Shown: one piece after another, positions 37,501-56,541 of the stretch | Position numbering within the stretch: position 1 is the first letter of the stretch | How the letters are laid out: each line of letters starts with the position of its first letter | Virus record (IMG/VR): IMGVR_UViG_3300009788_000087 | Reading direction: 5' to 3' (one strand) | Source of the DNA: a virus | DNA: 64,000 bases | Made by a program: the position numbers and the translations under genes | Notes under the pieces: generated by a model | What the model was told of the DNA's origin: nothing | Seen by the model: the letters and a program-made list of their open reading frames with translations, nothing else | The model's database searches: none

Positions 37501-37663
37501 AGAAGAGAGAACCGTCATGGATCATCGACGTATTACCCCAACTTATAGCTTTTACGCTGATATCATAGACACCACTGGCAACCAGCGCTTTTAGAATCTG
37601 CCTAGCATGGACACCATATCCGGATGCTGTTGTAACTGGTCCTTTAAAGAGGAGTTTCTTCAT
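34499..37663 (-). CDS. three-domain glycosyltransferase (GT4 + GT9 + GT2)
   Basis: SGYGVHAR...HGEGYGLPLLEAAACG; SAGDVY...GIDSVTMHMAAG; EVIVVDGGSDDGT...QQDVDE. Confidence 0.85.
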   Translation of the reverse strand: MKKLLFKGPVTTASGYGVHARQILKALVASGVYDISVKAISWGNTSMIHDGSLFFDKIYELASKFGSEHEKGGVEYDLSVQVTIPNEFEKLAKCNIGITAGIEVNACSPEWIVKANEMVDALFVPSMHSKQVFEQTGFQDQAGNTLSLNKPAFLAHEGFNPKYFNTDEVNESFNDFECDFNFLFVGLGISGKFDEERKNTSNLIKWFCEAFKDRKDVGLVMKTAIVNNSLADFRNTKYLIEQIKKSTDCGKYPRIELIHGRLSDEEMALLYKNPKVKAFVSLTHGEGYGLPLLEAAACGLPVIATNWSGHLDFLNIPDVKTSFVKLDFDLTPVPDSAVWKGVIEKGTQWASVKEEDVKFKLRKVVDSYDKPKEWAESLAKHVHENFTEGKVMSQLVNDITRVSHMHRQVNPTSVNEVISTLKSSFDKEDSGLKLLYTMPISAGDVYISTAVVNSLKKKFPEHKIFFATSQEYTSILKDNTDIHKVLQHQDWMNNVPLLEQVFDEVYTPNLAVQMTFSNWVHGGKGRLLANEIANQCNVELGDYFIKTEEISTPENYIVFNPGSGEGQWEARNYLHWQEIINNLIRELGDETQIVQVGLKDDPLYAGCTDFRGKTENFNQLAHVISKSKLVLGIDSVTMHMAAGLSVDHVALFGSSYPTSTGPVVSLIDVSDNGFVEFGKKSCKSVLLETSSRYTCDKACYKYQCEVDKDYPCINEIMPENVFRSTLRLLYPDRDQKNFLKNYEEYNPKISGYTHVYNAEGGEYPFVESIKSMLGFCDEVIVVDGGSDDGTVEKINAIGDKRIKVIERKWDWDEPGMDGMQKAYGRAMCTGDFLWQQDVDEVVHEEDYDKIRKLSKRFPKDVNLLHLPVIELWGEPDCVRTDRHSWKWRFSRNDFRITHGITKHARLIDEKTGKVYAKRGQSDGCEYIDIMTNEYIPHKGFYTNEIDQVRQQDPARYGELMNKAFSELPCVYHYSWANIPRKIKNFKQTWDAMWSNLYREQEPEDRFPDVKDENDKENIQRVAEALKTQGGEHDVAKTFRLDRTNPTVMGDWLAD

Positions 37664-42770: not shown

Positions 42771-42845
42771 TGGAGAGCAATCCCGGGATCGAACCGGGGC
42801 ATCTGAGGGTTGCAACCTCAAGCCTTTCCGCTTGGCTAATCGCTC
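42771..42845 (-). tRNA. trnC: tRNA-Cys(GCA)
   Basis: Cloverleaf, loop TTGCAAC, U73, CCA encoded. Confidence 0.9.
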
Positions 42846-42849
42846 GTAG

Positions 42850-42925
42850 AGGGCCGTGTGAGAATCGAACTCACCTATCACGGATTAACAGTCCGCCGCA
42901 ATCAAACCAGACATGCCAACGACCC
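42850..42925 (-). tRNA. trnN: tRNA-Asn(GTT), copy 1
   Basis: Loop CTGTTAA, T-loop TTCGATT; U73, no CCA. Confidence 0.8.
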
Positions 42926-42934
42926 TAAAATTTG

Positions 42935-43009
42935 CTCCAGGAGAAGGAGTCGAACCTTCAAGTCAAGCGCTTAACAGGCGCCCGGCATTACCAATTTGCC
43001 TACCCTGGA
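42935..43009 (-). tRNA. trnN: tRNA-Asn(GTT), copy 2
   Basis: Loop CTGTTAA, G73. Confidence 0.9.
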
Positions 43010-43010
43010 A

Positions 43011-43085
43011 TGGAGCTCCTACGCAGAATCGAACTGCGAGTTTGGCATTACGAAAGCCATGTGTTACCATTAACACCATAAGAGC
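43011..43085 (-). tRNA. trnT: tRNA-Thr(CGT)
   Basis: Loop TTCGTAA, CCA encoded. Confidence 0.85.
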
Positions 43086-43126
43086 AATTATATCATATCT
43101 AGTGTGTTAGTACACTAAATAAAGAG

Positions 43127-43210
43127 AGGAAGATGAGTGAGTCGAACACTCTTCACCTTTCAGCGGCCTGGGATTAGCAATCCCGCACATTACCGTTCTG
43201 TCAATCTTCC
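43127..43210 (-). tRNA. trnS: tRNA-Ser(GCT)
   Basis: Loop TTGCTAA, long variable arm; U73. Confidence 0.85.
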
Positions 43211-43214
43211 ATAG

Positions 43215-43289
43215 ATGCGGCCCAGGGACTTGCGCCCTGTAAGTTTCACAAGGTTATGAGCCTCGCAGCGTCTGTTTGCACTAGCCGCA
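43215..43289 (-). tRNA. trnM: tRNA-Met(CAT), initiator-like, non-canonical T-loop
   Basis: CGAGG-CTCATAA-CCTTG arm; T-loop CGCAAGT. Confidence 0.65.
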
Positions 43290-43294
43290 ATAAA

Positions 43295-43516
43295 TTACCA
43301 TCCAAATATATCGTGATCCAAGTAATCAAGTTCTTCATCAATATCTGGATAATCTCCAATTATATCACAAACTTGCTTGTTATATTCTTTAACTGTCATT
43401 GTTCTTTTACACTTTGGATATATTGAACATCCGTAGAAAGAATTTAAATTCTTTCTGTTGTGTCTCAGGACAACTCCATTTCCACATTTCTGACACTTTA
43501 CTTCTTCAATCTTCAA
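43295..43516 (-). CDS. topoisomerase C4 zinc-finger-like small protein
   Basis: CQKCG...FYGCSIYPKC. Confidence 0.8.
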   Translation of the reverse strand: MKIEEVKCQKCGNGVVLRHNRKNLNSFYGCSIYPKCKRTMTVKEYNKQVCDIIGDYPDIDEELDYLDHDIFGW

Positions 43517-44208
43517 TATCTCTCAATCAACTTTCTTGTATGTTCAGGTCCTTTTACTTGGTGGACATGATGTTGTATACTCCCTTTCATCTTTATAGCA
43601 AGTGGATAATCATTTCCACCCTTGCCACACTTATCTCCGAAGAAATGAACTTCGCCAAACAGATCATCTAATATCTGTGACTTATCTTTTCCAATCGGAT
43701 GAACGTCAATGCTAATTTCACCACCGACTGAGGCATCAAGCGTGTATCTGTGAATTCTCTTTATGACTTTGCACCAGTGTTCACGCTCTTTATTGGTAGC
43801 GTCCCAAGCTACGTAGTCTTCACGTTGTTTCGTCGTTGCATTTCTTCCAACCGTTGAGACATTTACCATCCCTGTTCGAACTTCAACGTGGTTTCCGTGT
43901 CTTTCAGGATATTTTGATTTATTGACAATGTCATTGAATAAAGCCATCATGGAGTCAGATGCTTCCCATTTATTCTCGTAAACAAGTTTTCCTTGAGTCC
44001 AGACTTCATTACCGCATGTTTGATGAACTGCGGTCACACCTTCCCAGATTTTTTGACCAACTTGACTTATCGTCTTGTCTTTATCACTTCCGGTTAGAAG
44101 ATAAACTTGTTTGTCTTTCATCCATTCAAGGAAAAATTCCTTAAACTCTTTTGACATCTTGCTCCGCGGAGGAGTGAGAGTGCCATCTACATCAAATACA
44201 AAATTCAT
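43513..44208 (-). CDS. phosphomannomutase, HAD-IIB (eukaryotic PMM-like)
   Basis: FDVDGTLT, TGSD, EVRTGMVN, GGEISIDV, DKSQ, FFGDKCGKGGNDYP. Confidence 0.85.
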   Translation of the reverse strand: MNFVFDVDGTLTPPRSKMSKEFKEFFLEWMKDKQVYLLTGSDKDKTISQVGQKIWEGVTAVHQTCGNEVWTQGKLVYENKWEASDSMMALFNDIVNKSKYPERHGNHVEVRTGMVNVSTVGRNATTKQREDYVAWDATNKEREHWCKVIKRIHRYTLDASVGGEISIDVHPIGKDKSQILDDLFGEVHFFGDKCGKGGNDYPLAIKMKGSIQHHVHQVKGPEHTRKLIERY

Positions 44209-44444
44209 GGTTTGACTTTAAGTATGTGTTTCCCATTCAGATGAACTGCCCAGTAGTATGGCACTGAAAAACAAGATCCAGAAACTATACGATAGAATGA
44301 CTTTAATTCGATCCACTTCTCTGCAGCTTTTCGTTTATTCTTGAAATAATGAATTCCACCGAATACACATTCTGGGATTTTATCAACTGGTGCTCCAATC
44401 TTATTCCAAAGATCACAGTCACAATCACATGTAATCACTGACAT
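44205..44444 (-). CDS. hypothetical protein
   Basis: ORF track; ATGA coupling. Confidence 0.6.
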   Translation of the reverse strand: MSVITCDCDCDLWNKIGAPVDKIPECVFGGIHYFKNKRKAAEKWIELKSFYRIVSGSCFSVPYYWAVHLNGKHILKVKP

Positions 44445-44445
44445 T

Positions 44446-44519
44446 TGGAGCCTAGAGAGAGAATCGAACTCTCATATTCGCTATACCACAACGATATTCT
44501 ACCATTGAATCATCCAGGC
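44446..44519 (-). tRNA. trnT: tRNA-Thr(GGT)
   Basis: Loop GTGGTAT (G32/U38), CCA encoded. Confidence 0.85.
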
Positions 44520-44716
44520 ATTTCATAGTCATCGTACCACACATGCTCCATCGGTGTAACATTGTACAGATTATTCCATGAGATAAATTCTAAAACTTTT
44601 TCTTTGGATTCGAAGACCAGTAATCGATCGCTCATGAAACTTACAAGCTTGAGTTCTTCATGACATCTTCCGATGCCAAGGTGACAAAATTTATGTTCAG
44701 CTATCCAACCTACCAT
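44510..44716 (-). CDS. hypothetical protein
   Basis: Lies between two tRNA-Thr genes; its last codons overlap the tRNA 5' end. Confidence 0.5.
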   Translation of the reverse strand: MVGWIAEHKFCHLGIGRCHEELKLVSFMSDRLLVFESKEKVLEFISWNNLYNVTPMEHVWYDDYEMPG

Positions 44717-44717
44717 T

Positions 44718-44791
44718 TGGAGCCCTCACCCAGAATCGAACTGAGATATATGGTTTACAAAACCATGGTTCTGCCATTGAACTATAAGGGC
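44718..44791 (-). tRNA. trnT: tRNA-Thr(TGT)
   Basis: Loop TTTGTAA, CCA encoded. Confidence 0.9.
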
Positions 44792-44885
44792 AATTCAGAG
44801 TCCCTCTCGACTCTCGGGGTGTAACCCCATGGGTGTCTCACTTGAGTGTCTCTGAGTGGAGCTGGTGGGACGAGAGAGGATGCTA
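44792..44885. repeat. GC-rich CTC/GAG element, copy 1
   Basis: Shares CCAGCTCCACTC-N53-CTCTGAATT with 63636-63726, in inverted orientation. Confidence 0.5.
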
Positions 44886-44895
44886 GAGTGTATAT

Positions 44896-44969
44896 TGGAG
44901 CGCCTGGTGGGAATCGAACCCACATCGCCAGGGTGGAAACCTAGAATTCTGCCTTTATACCACAAGCGC
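44896..44969 (-). tRNA. trnG: tRNA-Gly(TCC)
   Basis: Loop TTTCCAC, U73, CCA. Confidence 0.9.
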
Positions 44970-44975
44970 TTAGTT

Positions 44976-45060
44976 GAGACATGGTTGTGGTTACTTCGTC
45001 TAGCTCTTTGTTCTGGCATCGCTAGATCCCACGCTACGCCGCCAAAGCTCGCCATGTCTC
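44976..45060 (-). ncRNA. end-paired structured RNA, family X copy 1
   Basis: GAGACATGG/CCATGTCTC terminal stem; AGCTAG-N3-AAGT-N4-ACAAC motif. Confidence 0.5.
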
Positions 45061-45133
45061 GGTGCGGACATAGGGAATCGAACCCTAATCTCAACGTTGG
45101 CAACGTCGAATAATACCACTATACCATATCCGC
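45061..45133 (-). tRNA. trnG: tRNA-Gly(GCC)
   Basis: Loop TTGCCAA; A73. Confidence 0.9.
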
Positions 45134-45184
45134 ATTAGTCCGAGTTTTTTATATTTGGCAGAACCCGAAGAGAACAAAACTGCC

Positions 45185-45259
45185 GGTCGGGGAGAGCGGA
45201 TTCGAACCGCTGACCTCTCGTGTCCAAGACGAGTTGTCTGACCACTGACTTACACCCCG
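45185..45259 (-). tRNA. trnP: tRNA-Pro(TGG)
   Basis: C1-G72, loop CTTGGAC. Confidence 0.9.
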
Positions 45260-45318
45260 TAGTGGGGAGATTGTTCTTTTATATAGCGTCGGAACCTCCC
45301 GAACAACGCTAAGCTAAG

Positions 45319-45528
45319 CTAAACTCCCATTAAGATAGAAACTGCTACTTCATCCCTTGGAAAGATATTTGATCTCAACACAGCGACTCTTTCCACAAAA
45401 TCGCTGGCAAAAGGTATATCAACTTTGCATAAGTTGTCGTCATCTGGGCCAGTCACAATTTTAACATCGTAAGTCTCTCCACAGACGATAGCTTCAGCGT
45501 TACATTCAAATACTTCAATGCTACTCAT
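45319..45528 (-). CDS. hypothetical protein
   Basis: GAGG RBS; ORF track. Confidence 0.6.
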   Translation of the reverse strand: MSSIEVFECNAEAIVCGETYDVKIVTGPDDDNLCKVDIPFASDFVERVAVLRSNIFPRDEVAVSILMGV

Positions 45529-45562
45529 TTGCTTTTCCTCTCAGCTTATGTTATACCAGCGC

Positions 45563-45637
45563 GGTTGGCGAAGTAGGATTTGAACCTACAACCTTTCGGG
45601 TCAGAGCCGACTGCACCGCCAATTGTGCTACTCGCCA
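45563..45637 (-). tRNA. trnQ: tRNA-Gln(CTG)
   Basis: U1-A72, loop CTCTGAC. Confidence 0.9.
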
Positions 45638-46299
45638 TTGTATTGCTTTCTTCCAATCTTCCATCCTTGAGAAAGATAAACCTCTATTTCTTCTTTCATA
45701 ATTCTTTTGGATTGTCTTAATCTTTCATTAAAGATCCATTTTGATCCAAAAGATCCATTCTTGTCGCCCATATGTTTTCCAACTGCAGACTGTCTCATTT
45801 TTTCAATTGTTTCTGGCTCATGTTTCTTACCTAACCAATTTTGATTATTTAAAAGTTTTTTTCTTTGAGCTTCACTTGTTCGACCTTTTTCAAGGTTTTT
45901 AAACATTTTTTCTTTTTGAATAATCCAAACTTGACGATTTGCTTCTCTTGTTTTTCCATTCTTCCATCCCATAGCAGATATTCGACTTGCTTCTTCACTA
46001 TCAAATCCGCTCCCGCCTTTTCTGAGATTCATGCACAGTTTATCGTCGATCAAATCTTCTGTTATGATCTGTATTTCTTGTTTTTTAAGACTTTCTCGAT
46101 CTGAAAAAAATTCTACAATTTCTCGAACATGATTCTCTTTTCCATATTTCTTAATTGAATACCAAAGTCTTTTTCCTGATCCTAGATAACCATCTTCGAG
46201 ATCATCTGTAGAATGCATTCCAATGTAATATCGATTCGTTATAGTACATGTTGTTTTATAAATGTAGTGGTATTTTCGTCTACCTGCTTGCTTTCTCAT
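45628..46299 (-). CDS. GIY-YIG (Seg-like) homing endonuclease
   Basis: YHYIYKT...RYYIGMH...GYLGSG...YGKENH...E...CMN; NUMOD-like KHEPETIEKMRQS; AT-rich. Confidence 0.9.
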   Translation of the reverse strand: MRKQAGRRKYHYIYKTTCTITNRYYIGMHSTDDLEDGYLGSGKRLWYSIKKYGKENHVREIVEFFSDRESLKKQEIQIITEDLIDDKLCMNLRKGGSGFDSEEASRISAMGWKNGKTREANRQVWIIQKEKMFKNLEKGRTSEAQRKKLLNNQNWLGKKHEPETIEKMRQSAVGKHMGDKNGSFGSKWIFNERLRQSKRIMKEEIEVYLSQGWKIGRKQYNGE

Positions 46300-46336
46300 G
46301 CATTAAGTATGCAAACATGGTAGATTTTTCTAAAAG

Positions 46337-46409
46337 TGACTCCGGAAGGATTTGAACCCTCGTAAACTTGATTAGGAATCAAGTGCCTGATCCTCTAGAC
46401 TACGGAGCC
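46337..46409 (-). tRNA. trnR: tRNA-Arg(CCT)
   Basis: Loop TTCCTAA. Confidence 0.9.
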
Positions 46410-46411
46410 AT

Positions 46412-46482
46412 TGGCGCCGAACCGGGGAATCAAACCCACGCTAGCAAGGTTTGGAATCTCGCCTAATCTCAGATTGCTCGAC
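46412..46482 (-). tRNA. trnW: tRNA-Trp(CCA) with truncated D-arm
   Basis: Loop TTCCAAA, G73, CCA; D region only AATCTGAGATTAGG. Confidence 0.75.
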
Positions 46483-46953
46483 TTATTTTCTAACGCTGAT
46501 CGCATAAATTCTCTTTTGATCTACCGTTATTGACTTTCTATCGTTCCACCACATATGTATGAGTTTCTTGTCATTCCATACGTGTGTGCCGTTCTCATAT
46601 AAGTTGACTTTGAAATTCGAGGAATCGAAGATAGCAATCCCAGAAGTTCCTAGACTGCCAATTGCGAGAATCCAATGCTCCCAATTCTCTACGGCTAATA
46701 TAACCGGCTGGCCGTTCGCCAGAGTCTCGTGGAGCCACTCTGTTGCTTTCTGCTTATCATCGAAGGAGTGCTGTTTCGGATGGAATCCCCAAGCTCTGAG
46801 AGCTTTCAAGATTCCTACTTCTGACGTTCCATAATCTTGGTGAGTTCCAGCACATGCTCTAATTTCGTGTTCTGCGACTCGCACTCCAAATACTCGGAAA
46901 GTATTTCTTACGACGGCAGCGCCGCAGGACCACTTCTTTTTCTGACGCTTCAC
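46483..46953 (-). CDS. peptidase C39-like cysteine protease
   Basis: QKKKWSCGAA, YGTS, EHWILAIG, IAIFDS. Start moved to the GTG at 46953 because the longer ORF runs through tRNA-Arg. Confidence 0.8.
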   Translation of the reverse strand: MKRQKKKWSCGAAVVRNTFRVFGVRVAEHEIRACAGTHQDYGTSEVGILKALRAWGFHPKQHSFDDKQKATEWLHETLANGQPVILAVENWEHWILAIGSLGTSGIAIFDSSNFKVNLYENGTHVWNDKKLIHMWWNDRKSITVDQKRIYAISVRK

Positions 46954-46967
46954 GATATAAGTATGAG

Positions 46968-47040
46968 TACCATCGAGAGGATTCGAACCCCCATAAACCG
47001 GAGTAGAAATCCGGCGCCTATCCTTTCGAGCCACGATGGC
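46968..47040 (-). tRNA. trnR: tRNA-Arg(TCT)
   Basis: Loop TTTCTAC. Confidence 0.9.
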
Positions 47041-47045
47041 AAAAC

Positions 47046-47336
47046 TTAGAAAGTTTTTGTTAATGCTTGTTCAAGAAGAGCAGGATCAACTTTGATAACT
47101 CGCTCTGGCCGCTGCAGCCCGCGCGCATATCCTAAACCGGTTTTATATGTCTTCGTTGCATATTGGTATTGCTTTTCAAGAGGTCGAACTGACATGTATG
47201 AGCGTTCCCAACGACTATCTTCTCTTAGAACCATCTTTGTAATTTTTGCAATTGTTGCAACTTTTGTAGAATATCCTTTTGCATAAACTACGACATCACC
47301 AATAGTCAAAACATTTCCAAATTGATCTTTAAACAT
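47046..47336 (-). CDS. hypothetical phage protein
   Basis: MFKDQFGNVLTIGDVVVY, an SH3/KOW-like start common in phage; AAGGA RBS. Confidence 0.7.
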   Translation of the reverse strand: MFKDQFGNVLTIGDVVVYAKGYSTKVATIAKITKMVLREDSRWERSYMSVRPLEKQYQYATKTYKTGLGYARGLQRPERVIKVDPALLEQALTKTF

Positions 47337-47355
47337 GATTTTCCTTTCAAAAAAT

Positions 47356-47432
47356 TGGTCCCCCCTCTAGGATTTGAACCTAGATCTCACGGGTTAAGAG
47401 CCCGGTATGTTGCACATTGCCACCAAGGAGGG
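47356..47432 (-). tRNA. trnK: tRNA-Lys(CTT)
   Basis: Loop CTCTTAA, CCA encoded. Confidence 0.85.
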
Positions 47433-47485
47433 ATATCCCGATGAGGATTTTAACCTCTCCTTCCCGTCGGGTCGGGAAAACTAAT

Positions 47486-48508
47486 CTAAGCTTTTACAGT
47501 TTCTACTTTCTTTTTCTCGGCCTTGAATGAAAGACCAAGAACATTACCACCAACGATTTCATAACGAAGACGTGCTTCGTCTTTATACTTCCTTGCCTGA
47601 GCGGTGATGGCGTTTACCAGGTCCCAACGACTCTTGAACGAGAGATCTTCACTAATTGCAGTCATCGTCTTTACAACAAAGGACTTAGGCAATTTCTTTT
47701 GTTTTTCAAGTTCTACGAGCCTGTCGAGAGCATCAGACGCAGTCATGCGATCTGTCTGTGCAGTTCTTACATTTTCATAACACTGCTTTGCATCATCACC
47801 AACTCGATTAGATACTGACTTGATGACAGCTTCATAATCGAAGATTGCGGACTTTTTGTTGTCCATGTAGAAATACGGTCGACCACCATACTGCGCAATC
47901 ATTCCATTCGTGCAGATCTGACGGTAAAGCAAGAGATTGATCTGCTCTTGGACATGTTCAACATCAGAGTTCAACAGATCCATGCCCATCATGATCGGTG
48001 AGCCATCAACTTCAATTCCAGTATCTGGCCAAATGAGGCGAGTGCGGAAGAACGCTGGATGATCACTAACTGACCACGGAGCATGTTCAATCTTTACATC
48101 GTCGTTGAAAATGCGTTTTACATTCTCCAACATAAGAGCATTGGCGCGGAATTTCTTTCCTTCAGCGATAACGCCACGAAGAGTGAACCTACCGTCGACA
48201 GGGTTCTGATGAATAATAGCTTGACCGATTGGATTTTGAAGCTGTTCACCGAACTCCCTGAGCGATTTATTGACAAGTGTTGAAGATGCTGTCCGGATGT
48301 AACCAGCAGGCAGCTTGATAAATCTTGCCAACGAAGTGACGCTAGCTTTCGTGAGAGAGAGACGCTTGTCATCCTCTGTCACAAGCATCCCGTGATCTTC
48401 ACTGTCTGTAAATGTTAGCTTTCCAACATCTACCGCTTGGGTAAAAATATTAGAATCATATTCTTGAAGTTTACTAAGTGCGCCATCGATATTTCCATAC
48501 TTTTGCAT
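47486..48508 (-). CDS. DUF932-like protein
   Basis: GMDLLNSD...LLYRQICTNGMI...RWDLVNAITAQAR. Confidence 0.65.
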   Translation of the reverse strand: MQKYGNIDGALSKLQEYDSNIFTQAVDVGKLTFTDSEDHGMLVTEDDKRLSLTKASVTSLARFIKLPAGYIRTASSTLVNKSLREFGEQLQNPIGQAIIHQNPVDGRFTLRGVIAEGKKFRANALMLENVKRIFNDDVKIEHAPWSVSDHPAFFRTRLIWPDTGIEVDGSPIMMGMDLLNSDVEHVQEQINLLLYRQICTNGMIAQYGGRPYFYMDNKKSAIFDYEAVIKSVSNRVGDDAKQCYENVRTAQTDRMTASDALDRLVELEKQKKLPKSFVVKTMTAISEDLSFKSRWDLVNAITAQARKYKDEARLRYEIVGGNVLGLSFKAEKKKVETVKA

Positions 48509-48541
48509 GTTTTCTCCGTTTCAATTGAGAGTGTGAATTAT

Positions 48542-48570
48542 ATAATACCACTCTCACACTCATATGTAAA
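48542..48570 (-). promoter_or_regulatory. sigma70-like promoter
   Basis: TTTACA-17 nt-TATTAT; spacer resembles the one at 53070-53098. Confidence 0.65.
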
Positions 48571-48585
48571 CAAAAGAAAGATTAG

Positions 48586-48658
48586 TCCCACCCTGTGGAC
48601 TCGAACCACAATCTCTCGGGCTTCAACCGAGCGCATTGACCATCTCTGCAAGAGTGGG
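48586..48658 (-). tRNA. trnF: tRNA-Phe(GAA)
   Basis: Loop TTGAAGC. Confidence 0.9.
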
Positions 48659-48662
48659 AAAT

Positions 48663-48736
48663 TGGTCGCACCGAAGGGATTTGAACCCTCGCCTTCCACA
48701 TTGACAGTGTGGTGCACTACCTTATGCTACGATGCG
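48663..48736 (-). tRNA. trnD: tRNA-Asp(GTC)
   Basis: Loop CTGTCAA; atypical A73; CCA. Confidence 0.85.
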
Positions 48737-48741
48737 AAATT

Positions 48742-48820
48742 TGCCCGTTGTTCGACTTTAGCTAGCTTATCTCACTTTGTAGAGAGCTGCAGTATACTGC
48801 TACTGGGTGACGGACGGGCA
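48742..48820 (-). ncRNA. end-paired structured RNA, family X copy 2
   Basis: TGCCCGT/ACGGGCA terminal stem; AGCTAG-N3-AAGT-N3-ACAAC motif. Confidence 0.5.
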
Positions 48821-48829
48821 CCCACTGTT

Positions 48830-48904
48830 TGGTGACGTGGACGAGAGTCGAACTCGCACAACCAAGATTGAAAGTCTCGGAGACTACCGTTATCCTACCA
48901 CGCC
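48830..48904 (-). tRNA. trnE: tRNA-Glu(TTC)
   Basis: Loop CTTTCAA, CCA. Confidence 0.85.
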
Positions 48905-48909
48905 GAAAT

Positions 48910-48987
48910 TGGTACCCCCGGAAGGATTCGAACCTTCACCGCACAGATTAAAAGTCTGGTATGCTGCACATTAAACACCACGGAGGC
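48910..48987 (-). tRNA. trnK: tRNA-Lys(TTT)
   Basis: Loop CTTTTAA, CCA. Confidence 0.9.
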
Positions 48988-48999
48988 AATAAAAATTAG

Positions 49000-49071
49000 T
49001 AGGCCAGAAGGGAATCGAACCCTAAATCACACGCTTATAAGGCATGCGCTCTACCATTGAGCTACTGGCCT
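49000..49071 (-). tRNA. trnI: tRNA-Ile(TAT)
   Basis: CATGC-CTTATAA-GCGTG; clean cloverleaf. Confidence 0.9.
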
Positions 49072-49081
49072 ATTTACTTTG

Positions 49082-49155
49082 TGGGCCCTCTAGGATTCGA
49101 ACCTAGGATGACTCGGTTATGAGCCGAGAGCTTTAGACCGCTAAGCTAAGGGCCC
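49082..49155 (-). tRNA. trnI: tRNA-Ile2(CAT), lysidine type likely
   Basis: GGGCCCT acceptor and CTCATAA loop resemble ileX-type tRNAs. Confidence 0.75.
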
Positions 49156-49162
49156 TGAGTAT

Positions 49163-49477
49163 CTACAAACAGATTCTTCCGTATGTTGTTCCGATAATTT
49201 CACCGTCTTCTTTATCGAACCCATCACTCCAAGCACTTACATACATCATACCAGGAATGTCATAACAAGCATCGAAATTAAATTCTGGTTCGATCAACTC
49301 ATCTTTATCGCTTCTGACATTATTCCAATACCAGGACTCGATAGTCTGAAGAGCTTCATCCGTGCAGACAAATTCGTGGTGATACAGTGGTGTGCTAAAA
49401 CATAAATTATGCTTATAGTCGATACCATCTTCGAATTCTGCTAGGACTGAATTTTTACTTGAGCTGTGTAGTTTCAT
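49163..49477 (-). CDS. hypothetical protein
   Basis: AAGGA RBS before MKLHSS. Confidence 0.65.
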   Translation of the reverse strand: MKLHSSSKNSVLAEFEDGIDYKHNLCFSTPLYHHEFVCTDEALQTIESWYWNNVRSDKDELIEPEFNFDACYDIPGMMYVSAWSDGFDKEDGEIIGTTYGRICL

Positions 49478-49494
49478 GATATTCCTTTTCATTC

Positions 49495-49577
49495 GGTGGG
49501 AGCCGGTGGAGTTGAACCACCAACAGCCGAAGCGTCTGGTTTACAGCCAGGTGAGCTCGCCAATGCTCAGCACTCCC
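49495..49577 (-). tRNA. trnY: tRNA-Tyr(GTA)
   Basis: Loop CTGTAAA, long variable arm. Confidence 0.9.
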
Positions 49578-49688
49578 TAGATCAGGCCTTCCACCCGTAC
49601 GATCGGCGTTACCGGTATACCGACTCTTGTTTATTCACCTACCGGCGGATCGACTTAATTTAAAGACGCACGACTAACGTCTGACTTT

Positions 49689-50102
49689 CTATAGAGGTGG
49701 AACGCAGGCCTGAGCATCACAGAAGAAGTCTAGACAGACACATTCCCAACCTTCATTAACCCTACAGTCTTCATTAGCAGTACATTTTTGAAAACAAACT
49801 TTTTCACCGGTCGGATTATACCTGAGACAAAGTTCTGTATCTGGACAGGAGTCTACTAGACAATCCAAACCAGCTTCACATTCTTCGCCGTCGGTGGTGA
49901 GCCACGCACATTCATCAGTACAAAAACCACCGGCAACTTCTGTCTCATCCTGAAATTCTGTTACACAGTTTCCAGATACACATTCTTCACTTAGCTCGCA
50001 CGTCACACCATTTTCTACAGGATCAGGTCCACCAGATCCACACGATGAGGTAATGAGACAAATCGCAAAAATTACAATCGTAAACCCGATAAACTTTTTC
50101 AT
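49689..50102 (-). CDS. Cys-rich lipoprotein
   Basis: Lipobox-like ITSSC after a hydrophobic signal; many Cys in the mature part. Confidence 0.8.
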   Translation of the reverse strand: MKKFIGFTIVIFAICLITSSCGSGGPDPVENGVTCELSEECVSGNCVTEFQDETEVAGGFCTDECAWLTTDGEECEAGLDCLVDSCPDTELCLRYNPTGEKVCFQKCTANEDCRVNEGWECVCLDFFCDAQACVPPL

Positions 50103-50177
50103 TCTTGGTCCTTTCGTGACCCTGTTATACTCTCTTATTATATCAAATCAAGAACCAATGTGAAACTAAAAAGGCCC

Positions 50178-50256
50178 ACCATTGTAAAAGTCAAGATCGA
50201 TTTACACCGACCGCTGTATCTGCTTAACGCTAGTGCCCGGTCTCTAATACAATAGT
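50178..50256 (-). ncRNA. end-paired structured RNA directly after tRNA-Leu CCA
   Basis: ACTATTGTA/TACAATGGT stem; GACCG/CGGTC and GGT-GTAA-ATC hairpins. Confidence 0.45.
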
Positions 50257-50257
50257 C

Positions 50258-50333
50258 TGGTACCGCCGAGTGGATTCGAACCACCACTTTACGCGTTCTA
50301 AGCGCGCTCTCTCTGCCGTTGGAGTACGGCGGT
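50258..50333 (-). tRNA. trnL: tRNA-Leu(TAG), short variable loop
   Basis: Loop CTTAGAA, A73, CCA. Confidence 0.9.
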
Positions 50334-50363
50334 ATAGCTGTTGGATTTGTGATCCAACGATGC

Positions 50364-50440
50364 TGGTGCCCCGAGTGAGATTCGAACTCACACTGTCACG
50401 CGTCTCAGGCGTGTCTCTCTTCCAATTGGAGTATCGGGGC
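50364..50440 (-). tRNA. trnL: tRNA-Leu(GAG), short variable loop
   Basis: Loop CTGAGAC, A73, CCA. Confidence 0.9.
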
Positions 50441-50445
50441 AGATA

Positions 50446-50521
50446 ACTGAGATTAAAGGACTCCCTAACCAAGGAGATTATAACTGATCAATCAGACCTA
50501 CTGGTATTCCAGCGTCTCAGT
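50446..50521 (-). ncRNA. four-way-junction structured RNA
   Basis: ACTGAGA/TCTCAGT stem enclosing three hairpins. Confidence 0.45.
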
Positions 50522-50548
50522 CCGGTTTGTTTCTAGAAAACTCCCCGT

Positions 50549-50620
50549 TGGTACCCTCAAGAGGACTCGAACCTCTCCATTCCGGTTCGTAGCCGGAAGT
50601 TCCATCCAGTGGCTGAGGGC
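50549..50620 (-). tRNA. trnR: tRNA-Arg(ACG) with truncated D-arm
   Basis: TCCGG-CTACGAA-CCGGA; D region GCCACTGGATGGAACT; CCA. Confidence 0.8.
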
Positions 50621-50625
50621 AAACA

Positions 50626-50704
50626 TGGGACCGCCAGCAAAGTCCCACTAACAGGATCCCTCGATTCGGAGTCGAGCCTGCTAAGCATCTCCTATACCTG
50701 GCGA
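50626..50704 (-). ncRNA. tRNA-like RNA with a perfect Arg(CCG) anticodon arm and degenerate D/T arms
   Basis: TCGCCAG/CTGGCGG acceptor-like stem; CTCGA-CTCCGAA-TCGAG. Confidence 0.5.
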
Positions 50705-50723
50705 TCAACCAGACTTTGAAGAC

Positions 50724-50796
50724 GGTACCGCCTGAGAGAATCGAACTCCCGCCACAGCCGTGTAAAGACTAGGCCCTGCCATTAGACGAAGGCGGC
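50724..50796 (-). tRNA. trnV: tRNA-Val(TAC)
   Basis: Loop TTTACAC. Confidence 0.9.
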
Positions 50797-50833
50797 AAAT
50801 TATAACATTTCACTTTGCTAGCATATTTATTCT

Positions 50834-51433
50834 ATGCAACGATTTCTTATTACTGGTTGTCCGAGATCTGGAACTAAATTCATTGCTGACCTCTTAAGCA
50901 ACTTAGGAATTAAATGTGGTTGGGAGCAAATCTATAATTATGATATCGCTGCGTGGGGAGAAGGTGTTGTTGGTGAATCTAGCTGGCTTTCTGTCCAACA
51001 CTTTGATGTTCTTCCAGAAGATGTCATTGTGTTGCACCAAGTTCGTTATCCTCCAGAAGTTATCAAATCAATGATGCACTGGACTATATTAGAATCTGGT
51101 AAAGATAAAGCACATGCTTCTCGAACCACAAATAAACCCGAAAGATATGTCATTAGGGGATCAGAAAGAAGACAGCTGATATACGAAAGATTTTGGGTAG
51201 ACATCAACAATATCATTGCTGAACGTGCAGTGTATAGATGGAAAGTTGAAGATATAGATTTCGAAATTTACAACTTGCTTGACATCATCAAAATCAAAGT
51301 GCCAGAAGACAAAATAAAAAAAGAACTTGAATCAATCAATCGAAAAATAAACTCGGGTCATTATAAAGGACCTAAGCAGTTAAAAGATCCGGATGCAATA
51401 AAGCTCGCAGAATCCTATGGCTACAAACTATAA
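50834..51433 (+). CDS. sulfotransferase-family protein
   Basis: ITGCPRSGTKF 5'-PSB motif, GESSW, VLHQVRYP; only convincing plus-strand gene. Confidence 0.8.
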   Translation: MQRFLITGCPRSGTKFIADLLSNLGIKCGWEQIYNYDIAAWGEGVVGESSWLSVQHFDVLPEDVIVLHQVRYPPEVIKSMMHWTILESGKDKAHASRTTNKPERYVIRGSERRQLIYERFWVDINNIIAERAVYRWKVEDIDFEIYNLLDIIKIKVPEDKIKKELESINRKINSGHYKGPKQLKDPDAIKLAESYGYKL

Positions 51434-51436
51434 ACG

Positions 51437-51525
51437 ATGGGCGTCCTAGGCCAGACTAGACGATACCTCCCTACGTATGCATCCGTAAGTTGAAAGGCAG
51501 TAGGATTTGAACCTGCGTTTCCCAT
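51437..51525 (-). ncRNA. circularly permuted, anticodon-less tRNA mimic (unit D)
   Basis: Order: ATGGG / var / T arm / TGCCTTT-hairpin-GGAGGTA / D arm / CCCAT. Confidence 0.75.
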
Positions 51526-51531
51526 AAACTT

Positions 51532-51619
51532 GAGGTGGCTCTGCCGCTGAGCTACAATTCCTCGTCGGTCATGGCCGAACATCATCAGAATTGGTTGGAT
51601 TCGAACCAACGCACACCCC
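51532..51619 (-). ncRNA. circularly permuted, anticodon-less tRNA mimic (unit C)
   Basis: Order: GGGGT / var / T arm GTTGG-TTCGAAT-CCAAC / CAATTCT-hairpin-GGAATTG / D arm / ACCTC. Confidence 0.8.
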
Positions 51620-51621
51620 TT

Positions 51622-51697
51622 TGGTATCCTCAGATGGATTCGAGCCAACATTCTCCACCATGTCACGGTGGCGCTTTTCCGGTTAAGCTATGAGGAC
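51622..51697 (-). tRNA. trnV: tRNA-Val(GAC)
   Basis: Loop GTGACAT (G32/U38), CCA. Confidence 0.85.
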
Positions 51698-51702
51698 AAA
51701 AC

Positions 51703-51833
51703 TGGTGGGGGAGACGGGATTCGAACCCGCATAACCTGAAGCCCTTTAAAAACTTCGCGCCAGTCCAATTGCTGGACTTCTAGGTGTTAACACCACATAT
51801 AAAGCGGCTGCCTATCCAATCGGCTACTCCCCA
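51703..51833 (-). ncRNA. 131-nt tRNA-like RNA with giant branched variable region and encoded CCA
   Basis: Acceptor, D arm, T arm and ACCA all present; about 60 extra nt 3' of a TTTATAT-loop arm. Confidence 0.7.
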
Positions 51834-51839
51834 AAAACT

Positions 51840-51914
51840 TGGTACCTCGTGTCAGAATCGAACTGATCGTCGTGCGGTTATCGGCCGCACACTCTGCCAT
51901 TGAGCTAACGAGGT
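51840..51914 (-). tRNA. trnI: tRNA-Ile(GAT), C33 variant
   Basis: TGCGG-CCGATAA-CCGCA, CCA. Confidence 0.85.
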
Positions 51915-51920
51915 AAAAAG

Positions 51921-52000
51921 TGGACGCGAAGAGAATCGAACTCTTGTCCTAAATTGTTCCATTTGTCGGCTTACAACCTAGTCGAAACCAGCGCGCGCCC
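51921..52000 (-). ncRNA. ssrA: mini-tmRNA (tRNA-like domain only)
   Basis: GGGCGCG...TGGTTTCGAC, G3:U70, P2a stem, GGAC linker, T arm, A73; only a 15-nt loop where the mRNA domain should be. Confidence 0.75.
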
Positions 52001-52081
52001 TAAAACTGCCTGCCGCCACCCTCCGGACTTCCATCACTGATGTCGTGAGTAGCATACCATTGGGACGTACAGACATAAAGA

Positions 52082-52181
52082 AGAAGGTGGGCCGGACTCG
52101 CACCGGCAAGACTTATCCATGGTTACGTCTTTTATACAGAGCTTGCAAATTCTCTGCACGGACTCTAATACCCGCCCCTCC
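52082..52181 (-). ncRNA. Sec/allo-tRNA-like non-canonical cloverleaf
   Basis: Acceptor with bulged A, compact D arm, 7-bp stem with AATTTGCAAG loop, long variable arm, T arm GCCGG-TGCGAGT-CCGGC. Confidence 0.55.
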
Positions 52182-52188
52182 ATAAAAT

Positions 52189-52262
52189 TGGCAGATGTTG
52201 AAGGAATCGAACCCTCACCTACAGACTTGGAAACTGTCGTGCTACCACTACACCAAACAAAT
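52189..52262 (-). tRNA. trnW: tRNA-Trp(CCA), copy 2, two acceptor mismatches (possibly degenerate)
   Basis: Loop TTCCAAG, G73, CCA. Confidence 0.6.
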
Positions 52263-52269
52263 ATAAAGT

Positions 52270-52408
52270 CACCCACGAGAAGCATTACGACGTGTGTAAG
52301 TCTTCAGCTAATCCTCACATTTCGAACCAAAGGAATAGTACAGATCTTACAGCGATACGTATCTTCTATCTGCCACGATGCTGCAATACGCGCTTGCGAT
52401 GCCGTGGG
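52270..52408 (-). ncRNA. approx. 140-nt end-paired structured RNA
   Basis: CCCACG/CGTGGG plus GCAT/ATGC terminal helices; begins right after tRNA-Met CCA. Confidence 0.45.
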
Positions 52409-52482
52409 TGGTGCTGAAGGGTAGAATCGAACTACCATTATACGCATATGAAACGCACGTTTTCCCGTTAAACTACATCAGC
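52409..52482 (-). tRNA. trnM: tRNA-Met(CAT), elongator-type likely
   Basis: Loop TTCATAT, A73, CCA. Confidence 0.8.
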
Positions 52483-52601
52483 AGAAGAGATAGAAGACAA
52501 CCGTCATGCAACATGCTTGCAATCTATCTCAATGAATCAACAAGTTGCAATTGAAGATCCATAACTCATCCTGAATAGCCCAAGGATTTCCAGACGAGTA
52601 G

Positions 52602-52675
52602 TGCCCGCCGCGAGATTCGAACTCGCAACTCTCACTTTTTGAAAGTGATCCCTCTTCCAATTGGGGTAGACGGGC
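52602..52675 (-). tRNA. trnL: tRNA-Leu(CAA), short variable loop
   Basis: TCACT-TTCAAAA-AGTGA. Confidence 0.9.
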
Positions 52676-52785
52676 TAACGACCGCGATTGAACCCGGCCG
52701 ACACGTTTTTGATTCCGATGCAATTAATATTACAGCAGCTAATGATCGTCCGGTTCGAACATACCAGGAACGTGCTCCTGGATTG

Positions 52786-52858
52786 TGCTCCTGAAGAGAT
52801 TCGAACTCTTGCTGGACCGGGCTTAAACCGGATGTCTCTGCCGTTGGACTACAGGAGC
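52786..52858 (-). tRNA. trnL: tRNA-Leu(TAA), short variable loop
   Basis: Loop TTTAAGC. Confidence 0.9.
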
Positions 52859-52859
52859 A

Positions 52860-52936
52860 TGGGGCGGTAAATCGGATTCGAACCGACATTGGCAAAGTTC
52901 ACAACCTTGTGCATTAACCGTTATGCTATTACCGCC
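52860..52936 (-). tRNA. trnH: tRNA-His(GTG)
   Basis: Encoded G-1:C73, loop TTGTGAA, CCA. Confidence 0.92.
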
Positions 52937-53069
52937 ATAAAAGAGAGGGTCATCATTCAACGATGATGCTCTTAAAGGGCCACGTCATTTAGACAACCCT
53001 CTCGTTGTTTTTATTACATTCACTATTCAATTATCAATGAGCACAGCACCTTTGCGCCATTGTGAGAGT

Positions 53070-53098
53070 ATTATACCATCTCACTTTTCATATGTAAA
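53070..53098 (-). promoter_or_regulatory. sigma70-like promoter
   Basis: TTTACA-17 nt-TATAAT. Confidence 0.75.
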
Positions 53099-53110
53099 CT
53101 CTTATTTGCT

Positions 53111-53185
53111 TGGTGGACATGGGGAGAATCGAACTCCCATCGAGCAGCTTGCAAGGCTGACGTAATCCCGTTATACCACACGCCC
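53111..53185 (-). tRNA. trnA: tRNA-Ala(TGC)
   Basis: G3:U70, loop CTTGCAA, CCA. Confidence 0.92.
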
Positions 53186-53187
53186 GT

Positions 53188-53346
53188 TTACTTTTTCTTA
53201 TCGTATTCTTTCTTTGCTTTAGGTTCCCAATTTTTCGGCGGCTCTTTTCCTTGTAGCCAATTACTAGCTTCGCGCATCGCTGAGTTATTCATGTGTCCAG
53301 AAGCTAGTTTTGTTATTAGTTTTCTTGTCCAGTCGTCTTTTTTCAT
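53188..53346 (-). CDS. small basic protein (52 aa)
   Basis: MKKDDWTRKLITKLASGHM...; overlaps the upstream stop; not in the ORF track. Confidence 0.55.
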   Translation of the reverse strand: MKKDDWTRKLITKLASGHMNNSAMREASNWLQGKEPPKNWEPKAKKEYDKKK

Positions 53347-53675
53347 TTATAACCTAGTTTCTTATTCCACTCTTCTAACATTGCTTCTCGCCCTTTCTTA
53401 GGGCAACCACCGAAACCCCAGTCGACATCAAGGACTTTTCCACAATTTCCACATGCTACTTCCATTAATGGATTATTCTGCGGTCGCCAAGATCCATATT
53501 TACTTTTCTGAAAGATCAAGACGTGTTTTCTACCTTCTTTGCCTTTGCACCATTTCTTCTTATTTTTCTTCTTTGCTTTATGTTTTGGCACGTCTTCTAC
53601 TGACTTGTCGTGCCTGTTATCCCTATGTTTGATGCCGCCTGATTTCCAACTAGTATTATCTTCTTTTAAACGCAT
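53343..53675 (-). CDS. Lys-rich hypothetical protein with CxxC
   Basis: ORF track; coupled. Confidence 0.65.
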   Translation of the reverse strand: MRLKEDNTSWKSGGIKHRDNRHDKSVEDVPKHKAKKKNKKKWCKGKEGRKHVLIFQKSKYGSWRPQNNPLMEVACGNCGKVLDVDWGFGGCPKKGREAMLEEWNKKLGYK

Positions 53676-53836
53676 GAAGAATTTCTTTCGTATTCTAAAA
53701 TTTCTTCTTCTATGTCTATTTGTAATTCTCTTTCTACGCTTGCTTTTTCTTCATTTACTCCGTTTGCCTTGTGTGGTTTGCAGAGTAAACAGCCGGCTCG
53801 TCTATTCTTTGGTCTTTTCCGTTTATGGTTTGCCAT
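53666..53836 (-). CDS. small basic protein (56 aa)
   Basis: MANHKRKRPKNRRAGCLLCKPHK; ATG immediately follows tRNA-Ser CCA. Confidence 0.6.
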   Translation of the reverse strand: MANHKRKRPKNRRAGCLLCKPHKANGVNEEKASVERELQIDIEEEILEYERNSSCV

Positions 53837-53920
53837 TGGAGGAGAGTGGAGTAATCGAAACCCGTACCTTTCAGCACCCCAGGGGTTCAAACCCTGTTCG
53901 TCGCCTTGACGGCACTCTCC
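53837..53920 (-). tRNA. trnS: tRNA-Ser(TGA)
   Basis: Loop TTTGAAC, long variable arm, U73, CCA. Confidence 0.85.
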
Positions 53921-53974
53921 AGTTGCCCGCTCTATCGGCGGGCTATATCTTGTGATATTTACTATCACCCCCTT

Positions 53975-54487
53975 CTAACGTGTTTGTGTTTTGCTTCCAA
54001 CATTATATCTACCAATATTTTTATGTTTTACACAGAAGTCCGCAACGTGCATAGCAGCCCATGAATCTGGCTTCGTAAGAACATTAAATCCCTGACCAGT
54101 GACGTAACCAACAAGTTCTTGCAAATACTTTGAAGACTTGTATCGCAACTTTGGATTTACGTCAATGTGGATACAAAGTTCAACATCCTCCGATAAAACT
54201 TCGTTGAGTTCGAATCCAATCTCAATGCTTTTCGATACTTCCGTGAGAAGACGTTCCCTGAGAGATGTGATGCGTGGCACTTTTTCCGTTGTCCACAGGA
54301 CTCTTCCACCTTTTCCAGGCTTCAAGAGGACAACGACTCGCACGAATTCAGTGATAAGCTCGTGCTGCTGTGAGTCACAACCAACGTGGATCAAGCGATT
54401 ACCATCAGCAGTTGACTTCACAACCTCAGCAACATAATCATCAACATGTTTTCCACTCAACGTCTTCCATGTTAGTACGCTTGCCAT
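53975..54487 (-). CDS. RNase H-like YkuK (DUF458) family protein
   Basis: IHVGCDSQ, RERLLTEVSKS, IHIDVN, KPDSWAAMHVAD. Confidence 0.85.
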   Translation of the reverse strand: MASVLTWKTLSGKHVDDYVAEVVKSTADGNRLIHVGCDSQQHELITEFVRVVVLLKPGKGGRVLWTTEKVPRITSLRERLLTEVSKSIEIGFELNEVLSEDVELCIHIDVNPKLRYKSSKYLQELVGYVTGQGFNVLTKPDSWAAMHVADFCVKHKNIGRYNVGSKTQTR

Positions 54488-54506
54488 TTTCTTCCTTTCT
54501 TTCTCC

Positions 54507-54580
54507 TGGTTCGGAAACGAGGGATTGAACCTCGATTAAGCGAGTCAAAGTCGCTTGTCTTACCATTAGACCATTCCCGA
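54507..54580 (-). tRNA. trnQ: tRNA-Gln(TTG)
   Basis: U1-A72, loop CTTTGAC, CCA. Confidence 0.9.
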
Positions 54581-55806: not shown

Positions 55807-56541
55807 CTAGCTACCAAACAGGTAGTCAAAAACTCGTTTACCGACCGTTGCCTTTGGAGCATTGGTGCTATTTGCTTCTTCACGTGCAAACTTCGCTGCC
55901 TTAAGCAGAGTTTCAATACGACGAAGGAACGTTTTCTTCCGTGAAGAGAGAATCGCGCCGGACTGCTTCACTGTATCCCAGTGACCGACCGTAACATCTC
56001 TAGTGATGAGCTGTGTCTGAGCTGGATGTTCTGGCGTTGCATCGTACATGACAATCGGCTCTTGGACCTTTGCCGTCGAACGTGTTGTCACTGCGGCAGT
56101 CTTGAATAGACTCGCAGCATCATCATGATTCCACTCCTCATCCGTGGAGAGAGTTGGCAGCGACTCAACGAATGTCCTAATGTCAATCAACTGCTTCTCA
56201 AGGAAAAGCAAATACGTTGCTGGAACCTTTTCCAAAAGAACAGCACCGTCTACAACAACATCAGCTTTTGCTGCAGTGTTGGCAAAATCCTTCTGAGCGG
56301 TGACATCAAACAATTCACTAAGCGACTCAGACGCCGCATCGAGAACTTCATCAACACGCGCTTGGACATGCTTGATCTCGTTAGGGCGTTCTTCACCTTC
56401 CTCATTACTCTTTCGCCACGATTTAGCAAAACCGTTAAAAAGATCACTCTTTTGAGCGACCTTGTACAACCTTGTGAGCTCCGACTTTGCTCGAGTCTTC
56501 ACACCCTTCTCAATAGCGATTACTTGATTTAGTTTTGGCAT
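55807..56541 (-). CDS. conserved coiled-coil hypothetical protein (phage/actinobacterial family)
   Basis: MPKLNQVIAIEKGVK...VPATYLLFLEK...HPAQ...AKFAREEAN; I recognise the family but know no function. Confidence 0.85.
   Translation of the reverse strand: MPKLNQVIAIEKGVKTRAKSELTRLYKVAQKSDLFNGFAKSWRKSNEEGEERPNEIKHVQARVDEVLDAASESLSELFDVTAQKDFANTAAKADVVVDGAVLLEKVPATYLLFLEKQLIDIRTFVESLPTLSTDEEWNHDDAASLFKTAAVTTRSTAKVQEPIVMYDATPEHPAQTQLITRDVTVGHWDTVKQSGAILSSRKKTFLRRIETLLKAAKFAREEANSTNAPKATVGKRVFDYLFGS

Follow-up and report, generated by a model that had tools for sequence, protein, structure and literature searches.

An 80-nt element on the minus strand of the phage DNA analysed here (64,000 nt, hereafter the window) is a tmRNA homologue reduced to the tRNA-like domain (TLD) alone. 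This mini-tmRNA form is widespread and common in uncultivated phages, and its conserved features point to charging with alanine being under selection, a property that a pure protein sponge would not need. The element is a real gene; that it works as a charged, tag-less competitor of host trans-translation is the reading favoured here, at even odds.

Identity and anatomy of the mini-tmRNA

When 4227 Rfam families were compared with the window, the tmRNA model RF00023 matched the element over its full span (52000..51918, minus strand) with 64.1 bits against a gathering score of 47 (E 1e-22), and the same match was obtained in a repeat scan with an E of 1.4e-24. The clan comparison, for which the best overlapping clan member is listed, kept RF00023 and not the mitochondrial tmRNA model. 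The identification as a TLD-only tmRNA, made in a preliminary description from the letters alone, was right in every detail. The coordinates given there were exactly those of the predicted mature RNA before CCA addition when the segments were checked, and all the TLD hallmarks and the 15-nt loop were found at their places in the RF00023 alignment and by letter check (Table 1).

Table 1. Segments of the predicted mini-tmRNA and features of its surroundings in the window
Feature	Position	Strand	Basis or remark
Predicted mature mini-tmRNA, 80 nt	51921..52000	-	RF00023 64.1 bits; R1 covariance model 68.1 bits; G1 = 52000, discriminator A = 51921
Acceptor 5' strand GGGCGCG	51994..52000	-	Pairs with 51922-51928; segment letters checked
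Acceptor 3' strand CGCGUCC	51922-51928	-	Yields G3.U70 with the 5' strand
Linker CG between acceptor 5' strand and D-loop analogue		-	
D-loop analogue CUGGUUUCGAC	51981..51991	-	Aligned to tmRNA consensus cuGGaUUCGAC; D stem absent
Helix P2a UAGGUUGU / ACAAUUUA	51980-51973 / 51957-51950	-	8 pairs, 2 of them G.U
15-nt loop AAGCCGACAAAUGGA closing P2a	51972-51958	-	In place of pseudoknots and tag reading frame
GGAC motif	51949-51946	-	Aligned to RF00023 consensus
T arm AAGAG/UUCGAUU/CUCUU	51945-51929	-	RF00023 alignment; letter check
Co-directional tRNA array holding the mini-tmRNA, 32 ARAGORN tRNA genes	42771..54580	-	ARAGORN
tRNA-Ile(GAU), 6 nt downstream of the mini-tmRNA	51840..51914	-	ARAGORN; Rfam tRNA 50.7 bits
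tRNA-Trp, 188 nt upstream of the mini-tmRNA	52189..52262	-	ARAGORN; Rfam tRNA 47.3 bits
DUF7873 gene, upstream edge of the array	55807..56541	-	Pfam PF25283, E 8.9e-94
Sigma-70-like promoter match TTTACA-17 nt-TATAAT, with TG	53070..53098	-	Consensus match only

The TLD features found in the mini-tmRNA were a 7-bp acceptor, G3.U70, A73, a D-loop analogue without a D stem, GGAC, a UUCGA-type T loop and a helix P2a that replaces the anticodon arm. At the 3' end the discriminator A (51921) is followed by CUUUUU, and CCA is not encoded. The mRNA-like domain with its resume codon, tag frame and stop is absent, just 15 nt separating the P2a strands. In the RF00023 match, 13 nt stand in for the 304 central positions of the model, which leaves no room for the pseudoknots PK1-PK4, and these are absent as well. 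Within its 15-nt loop the window has a 2-bp stub (CC/GG) where the family has a short P2b hairpin.

Both the Rfam tmRNA models and ARAGORN had been proposed as checks. The former gave the positive result described above, whereas ARAGORN at default settings called no tmRNA, tag or tRNA at 51921-52000 of the window. The 'permuted tmRNA' calls made by ARAGORN under relaxed settings were mutually inconsistent and had odd tags, and were regarded as noise. A two-piece (permuted) tmRNA (RF01849-51, RF04321) was rejected, since the order of the segments is standard and contiguous and Rfam gave no support for a separate coding piece nearby; the sole RF04321 match in 51500-52400 reached 19.9 bits (cut-off 47) at 51651-51730, away from the mini-tmRNA. 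Identity as a tRNA-Ala was rejected on the missing default tRNA call and on the Rfam clan comparison, which keeps the tmRNA model over tRNA. The true tRNA-Ala(UGC) at 53111-53185 scored just 28.5 bits with the covariance model R1.

Folded alone, the mini-tmRNA was thermodynamically unremarkable (z -1.58), and its minimum-energy fold did not contain the T arm. Since thermodynamic folding alone was not informative, the structural case is carried by covariation. An exact-word search of viral contigs with the window RNA gave no match. BLAST against cultured phage genomes found no relative of the region, and with the RNA itself it returned T-arm-sized pieces only.

Spread of the family and conservation of its fold

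Members of the family were searched for with a degenerate pattern that allowed only 20-50 nt from the D-loop analogue to GGAC. The viral collection contained 13 pattern loci, 11 of which passed the Rfam tmRNA cut-off as full-span matches of 79-85 nt, and at least 120 pattern loci, in fact more than 120, were found in metagenomes. Bacterial and archaeal genomes, represented by one per species, contained 17 pattern loci, just one of them strong with R1. This lone strong match of that collection (L208, 4791-4892; 67 bits, 102 nt) comes from a Pseudescherichia MAG, where the contig of 54 kb that carries it may belong to a phage or prophage.

Among the matches listed, a filter on acceptor and T-stem pairing left 59 distinct sequences of 68-82 nt. 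The covariance model R1 was accompanied by an alignment of 60 distinct members (68-85 nt), the window RNA and that of the related locus L015 included; many of these are close kin, and clustering by P2-region similarity (80%) gives 32 clusters. Standard pairs occupied 93.2% of the alignment cells, whereas shuffles reached 68.8% and slid partners no more than 62.6%. Changes on both sides were seen in 18 of the 22 pairs, and the covariation score was 0.646, slid partners not exceeding 0.164. Helix P2a, which was not part of any filter, was 90.5% paired across the 60 members and all seven of its pairs covaried. Because the pattern fixes the D-loop analogue, GGAC and the T loop and the filter acts on acceptor and T pairing, conservation in these parts is partly built in; in the T stem, 4 of 5 pairs covaried.

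Neither G3.U70 nor the discriminator A was demanded by the search pattern or the filter. G3.U70 was nevertheless present in 60/60 members, with acceptor pairs 4-7 covarying freely, and of the 59 sequences found by the pattern 55 had A as discriminator. That G3.U70 is invariant and A73 nearly so, while acceptor pairs 4-7 vary, argues that charging is probably under selection.

The interior of the members follows a common plan of P2a, an A-rich bulge, a 2-4-bp hairpin and 1-2 bases, to which the window conforms. At the junction of P2a and the loop (about 51971-51974 in the window), the last P2a base and the next two form UAA, UAG or UGA in 39/60 members, and in other members, e.g. the window (GUAA), the triplet is shifted by one base. 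It may reflect a structural U-A closing pair plus the A-rich bulge, or it may be a signal. In three complete viral genomes bearing the mini form, no other tmRNA homologue exceeded the cut-off. The complete viral genome L007 (40.6 kb) also has a Pistol self-cleaving ribozyme (706-767; 51.4 bits, cut-off 34.5) about 200 nt upstream of its mini-tmRNA (971-1053), and the ribozyme may serve to process this transcript.

A phage RNA of this kind was already on record. 'Mycobacterium phage DS6A (TLD only)' was listed by Hudson, Lau & Williams in 2014 (PMC4131195), with tmID 11587 at the tmRNA Website, and the 2025 tmRNA database paper terms the DS6A RNA CDS-less (PMC11915505). The preliminary description had named the TLD-only forms of jakobid mitochondria as known but was incomplete in leaving out DS6A. 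Since R1 finds both the DS6A RNA (JN698994 28478-28560, 56.5 bits) and the window RNA (68.1 bits), the latter is, on this sequence comparison, a new member of a kind already published but little studied. Both are phage-borne and about 80 nt long, with a G3.U70 acceptor, P2a, a T arm, an A-rich bulge plus short hairpin and no tag frame, and the interior of the DS6A RNA is nearly identical to those of two metagenomic members (L011 and L122). With 60.6 kb, however, the mycobacteriophage DS6A is much smaller than the window phage, and the two differ in phage type and host. The DS6A gene is unannotated and lies between the protein-coding gp33 and gp34, and the 2 kb viewed there contain no annotated RNA gene, unlike the window gene inside its array of 32 tRNAs. 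The GGAC and CUGGUUUCGAC of the window correspond to GGCAC and UGGUGGUCGAC in DS6A, and the missing CCA of the window is a further difference.

According to the passage on DS6A in PMC4131195, which cites Mao et al. 2009, the strong inhibition of tmRNA by a DS6A-like molecule does not depend on its being chargeable and perhaps comes about by SmpB titration. The corresponding remark in PMC11915505, citing the same work, is that such a molecule inhibits endogenous tmRNA in E. coli. The two roles suggested in the preliminary description, an SmpB sponge or rescue of ribosomes without a tag, agree with what PMC4131195 says of the DS6A molecule in that passage.

Reduced tmRNAs without a tag frame have also been described from jakobid and oomycete mitochondria and as plastid forms of about 65 bp (PMC3590771, PMC11915505). 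Like the window RNA they have a TLD and no tag frame and are thought to act with SmpB, but they occur in organelles and have as partner an SmpB that is encoded in the nucleus and targeted to the organelle, and some of the mitochondrial ones are two-piece. The bacterial one-piece tmRNA (SsrA, RF00023) and the full-length tmRNAs of related phages share the TLD of the window RNA (acceptor with G3.U70, A73, D-loop analogue, GAC/GGAC, T arm and the start of helix 2). In contrast to them, the window RNA has no pseudoknot, resume codon, tag frame or stop codon. No description of a wide phage spread of TLD-only tmRNA was found in the literature.

The tRNA array and related phages

The source of the window is a tailed phage, and baseplate wedge and tail-fibre proteins are encoded. 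A sugar-modification cluster occupies 27374-37663 and 43513-44208 (minus strand). Its products include a glycosyltransferase of 1054 aa, methyltransferases of the TylF and other types and a protein resembling polysaccharide deacetylases; within the tRNA array lies a gene similar to that of phosphomannomutase. CCA is encoded in 18 of the 32 array tRNAs and absent in the other 14, so that its absence from the mini-tmRNA is not a sign of decay. A transcript including the mini-tmRNA might start at the promoter match, a good one that lies on its strand about 1.07 kb upstream. Sigma-70-like sites numbered 8 in the region against a shuffle mean of 8.5, the counts of both promoters and terminators not being above those of shuffles.

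Several other unusual elements were observed close by. A tRNA-like gene of 128-131 nt with a CCA end lies at 51703-51833 (minus strand; Rfam tRNA 36.5 bits) and has 58 nt inserted into its variable region as well as the anticodon loop UUUAUAU. ARAGORN called it only when relaxed, as a tRNA-Tyr(AUA) with an intron, and the 32 standard calls include no tRNA-Tyr. At 51492-51634 (minus strand) there was a weak match to YrlA (Y RNA-like; 24.1 bits vs a cut-off of 69), in which the T arm precedes the D arm, a circularly permuted tRNA-like order; relaxed ARAGORN instead gave a tRNA-Gln with a 59-nt intron. The 188-nt gap between tRNA-Trp and the mini-tmRNA (52001-52188, minus strand) had no Rfam match at E up to 1. 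Its fold energy was not unusual (z -0.73), and relaxed ARAGORN placed a 96-nt 'tRNA-Ala(AGC)' with a T-arm-like hairpin at 52083-52178.

With DUF7873 as a marker, 55 related viral loci were collected. Six of them (L026, L037, L041, L044, L053 and L060) have a full-length tmRNA within 10 kb, with the tags ANNVVSLFGNVVANDNGTAEPLPLAA, ANDFALAA, AKNDFALAA and ANDNAYATPALAAA (...ALAA/LAA ends). These full-length tmRNAs lie beside DUF7873 in co-directional arrays that reach 37 tRNAs per 20-kb locus, the same setting as in the window. Among the 55 loci, L015 was the sole one with a mini form (85 nt, 62.9 bits), which follows a tRNA-Lys at a distance of 0.35 kb downstream of DUF7873. A tree of DUF7873 joined the window to L014 (support 98/92) and then to L015 (88/88), and the phages with full-length tmRNAs were placed on more distant branches.

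At 60% identity, the mini forms of the window and L015 are separated by 9 compensatory double changes, and the acceptor, P2a and T pairs are all standard in both, indicating that the short form was maintained through substantial divergence. The preliminary description had considered that relatives might carry a full tmRNA of which this was a fresh deletion. Full-length tmRNAs do occur in the more distant relatives, but the diverged, intact mini form of L015 and the recurrence of the form in many phage lineages show that it is not a fresh deletion. The mini form can thus fill the slot of the tRNA array in which related phages keep a full-length tmRNA. Most simply, it was derived from a full-length gene resident in the array; the window and L015 phages may instead have acquired it independently.

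Searches for SmpB (PF01668) were negative in eight viral contigs that are related or bear a mini form; they covered five DUF7873 relatives (three at least 95% complete) and five other contigs with a mini form (three complete). SmpB was not found either among 30 ORFs of the window (109-340 aa, Pfam), which is part of a phage genome, or in the 392-kb contig holding L026, the only contig searched of the six with a full-length tmRNA. Genes for RF-1/ArfB-type proteins (PF00472) and peptidyl-tRNA hydrolase (PF01195) were not found in five mini-bearing contigs. With no SmpB in the sequences examined, SmpB and AlaRS of the host must presumably serve the mini-tmRNA; as no release-factor or hydrolase genes were found either, host EF-Tu and release/recycling factors would also have to do so.

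Possible modes of action

The requirements for alanylation, EF-Tu binding and SmpB binding are established for tmRNA, and the mini-tmRNA sequence appears to hold everything needed for all three. We infer its processing, charging, SmpB binding, ribosome entry and benefit to the phage. The mini-tmRNA would be co-transcribed with the neighbouring tRNAs and excised by host tRNA-processing enzymes, with RNase P cutting at G1, 3' trimming and CCA addition. Host alanyl-tRNA synthetase would add alanine by way of G3.U70 and A73, and host SmpB would bind the RNA. Together with SmpB and EF-Tu, the Ala-RNA would compete with the full-length tmRNA of the host for entry into ribosomes that have stalled where a broken mRNA ends, and take over the nascent chain. 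As resume codon, tag frame and stop are lacking, no degradation tag would be added and host factors would have to resolve the complex, possibly ArfB or ArfA, drop-off with peptidyl-tRNA hydrolase, or a further round of tmRNA. As a net effect, ssrA tagging and the decay coupled to it would be diverted or blocked during infection.

That the mini-tmRNA acts in this way, as a charged, SmpB-dependent, tag-less competitor of host trans-translation entering stalled ribosomes, is the reading we favour as the likeliest, at even odds. It may be objected that with no stop codon the RNA alone cannot finish the rescue, and the inhibition in E. coli without chargeability, as related in the DS6A passage of PMC4131195, suggests that SmpB titration alone may suffice. 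The latter is what would be expected of a pure SmpB sponge, which would tie up the SmpB of the host, and by way of SmpB perhaps RNase R, so that the host tmRNA is starved of its partner, charging and ribosome entry being irrelevant. Such a sponge, which we consider possible though doubtful, is also in keeping with the absence of phage SmpB from the contigs searched and with the intact SmpB-contacting region (D-loop analogue, GAC/GGAC and start of P2a). The contacts of SmpB on the TLD are known from solved TLD-SmpB structures, and SmpB binds far from G3.U70. A sponge would not need G3.U70, yet this pair is invariant and A73 nearly so while the rest of the acceptor stem covaries, and the full acceptor-T helix required by EF-Tu is retained too. 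The apparent selection on charging therefore favours the charged competitor over the pure sponge.

The mini-tmRNAs might also be more than a sponge: a class that is widespread, encoded almost exclusively by phages and productive in its own right. This could be repeated transfer of alanine, or addition of alanine followed by drop-off, as a tag-free recycling that bypasses host proteolysis; or the conserved U-A-A/UGA/UAG at the junction could be a built-in stop that releases chains with one alanine. We think this improbable; if it were true, mini-tmRNAs would be the smallest natural trans-translation RNAs. A decoy or shield is a still slimmer prospect. Here the RNA, as one of several tRNA mimics of the array, would act against a host defence or nuclease that recognises tmRNA- or tRNA-like RNA (RNase R, defence proteins with SmpB-like domains or tRNA-cleaving toxins). 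The array does contain further odd tRNA-like elements, CoCoNuT defence systems have SmpB-like domains predicted to bind tmRNA (PMC11090510), and fragments of tRNAs and tmRNA, which also bind RNase R, play a part in the anti-CRISPR complex of AcrIIIA1 (PMC11662646). However, no such defence or target was identified for the host of this phage, in other phages the flanks fetched around the mini form contain no tRNA genes called by ARAGORN, and a decoy leaves the strict conservation of alanine identity unexplained. Least probable is a decaying, functionless remnant of the full-length tmRNA gene still present in relatives. The full-length tmRNAs in the same kind of slot in more distant relatives and the missing CCA would fit such a remnant, but all four helices are intact, the 60%-identical L015 relative preserves the acceptor, P2a and T pairs by its compensatory changes, and the same architecture recurs in the 32 sequence clusters and in DS6A.

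Prior literature held one example, DS6A, and one E. coli experiment. To these the present analysis adds that the form is common in uncultivated phages, that its alanine identity is probably under selection and that it can occupy the array slot of a full-length tmRNA. It also adds that ARAGORN, the finder used in two phage tmRNA surveys (PMC7162821, PMC9004378), misses the mini-tmRNA of the window.

The mini-tmRNA is a natural minimal substrate with which to study what the TLD can do on the ribosome without a message. Trans-translation is the main bacterial route of ribosome rescue and protein quality control, and a phage RNA that has the alanine-accepting end of tmRNA but has dropped the tag could redirect or disable it using 80 bases.
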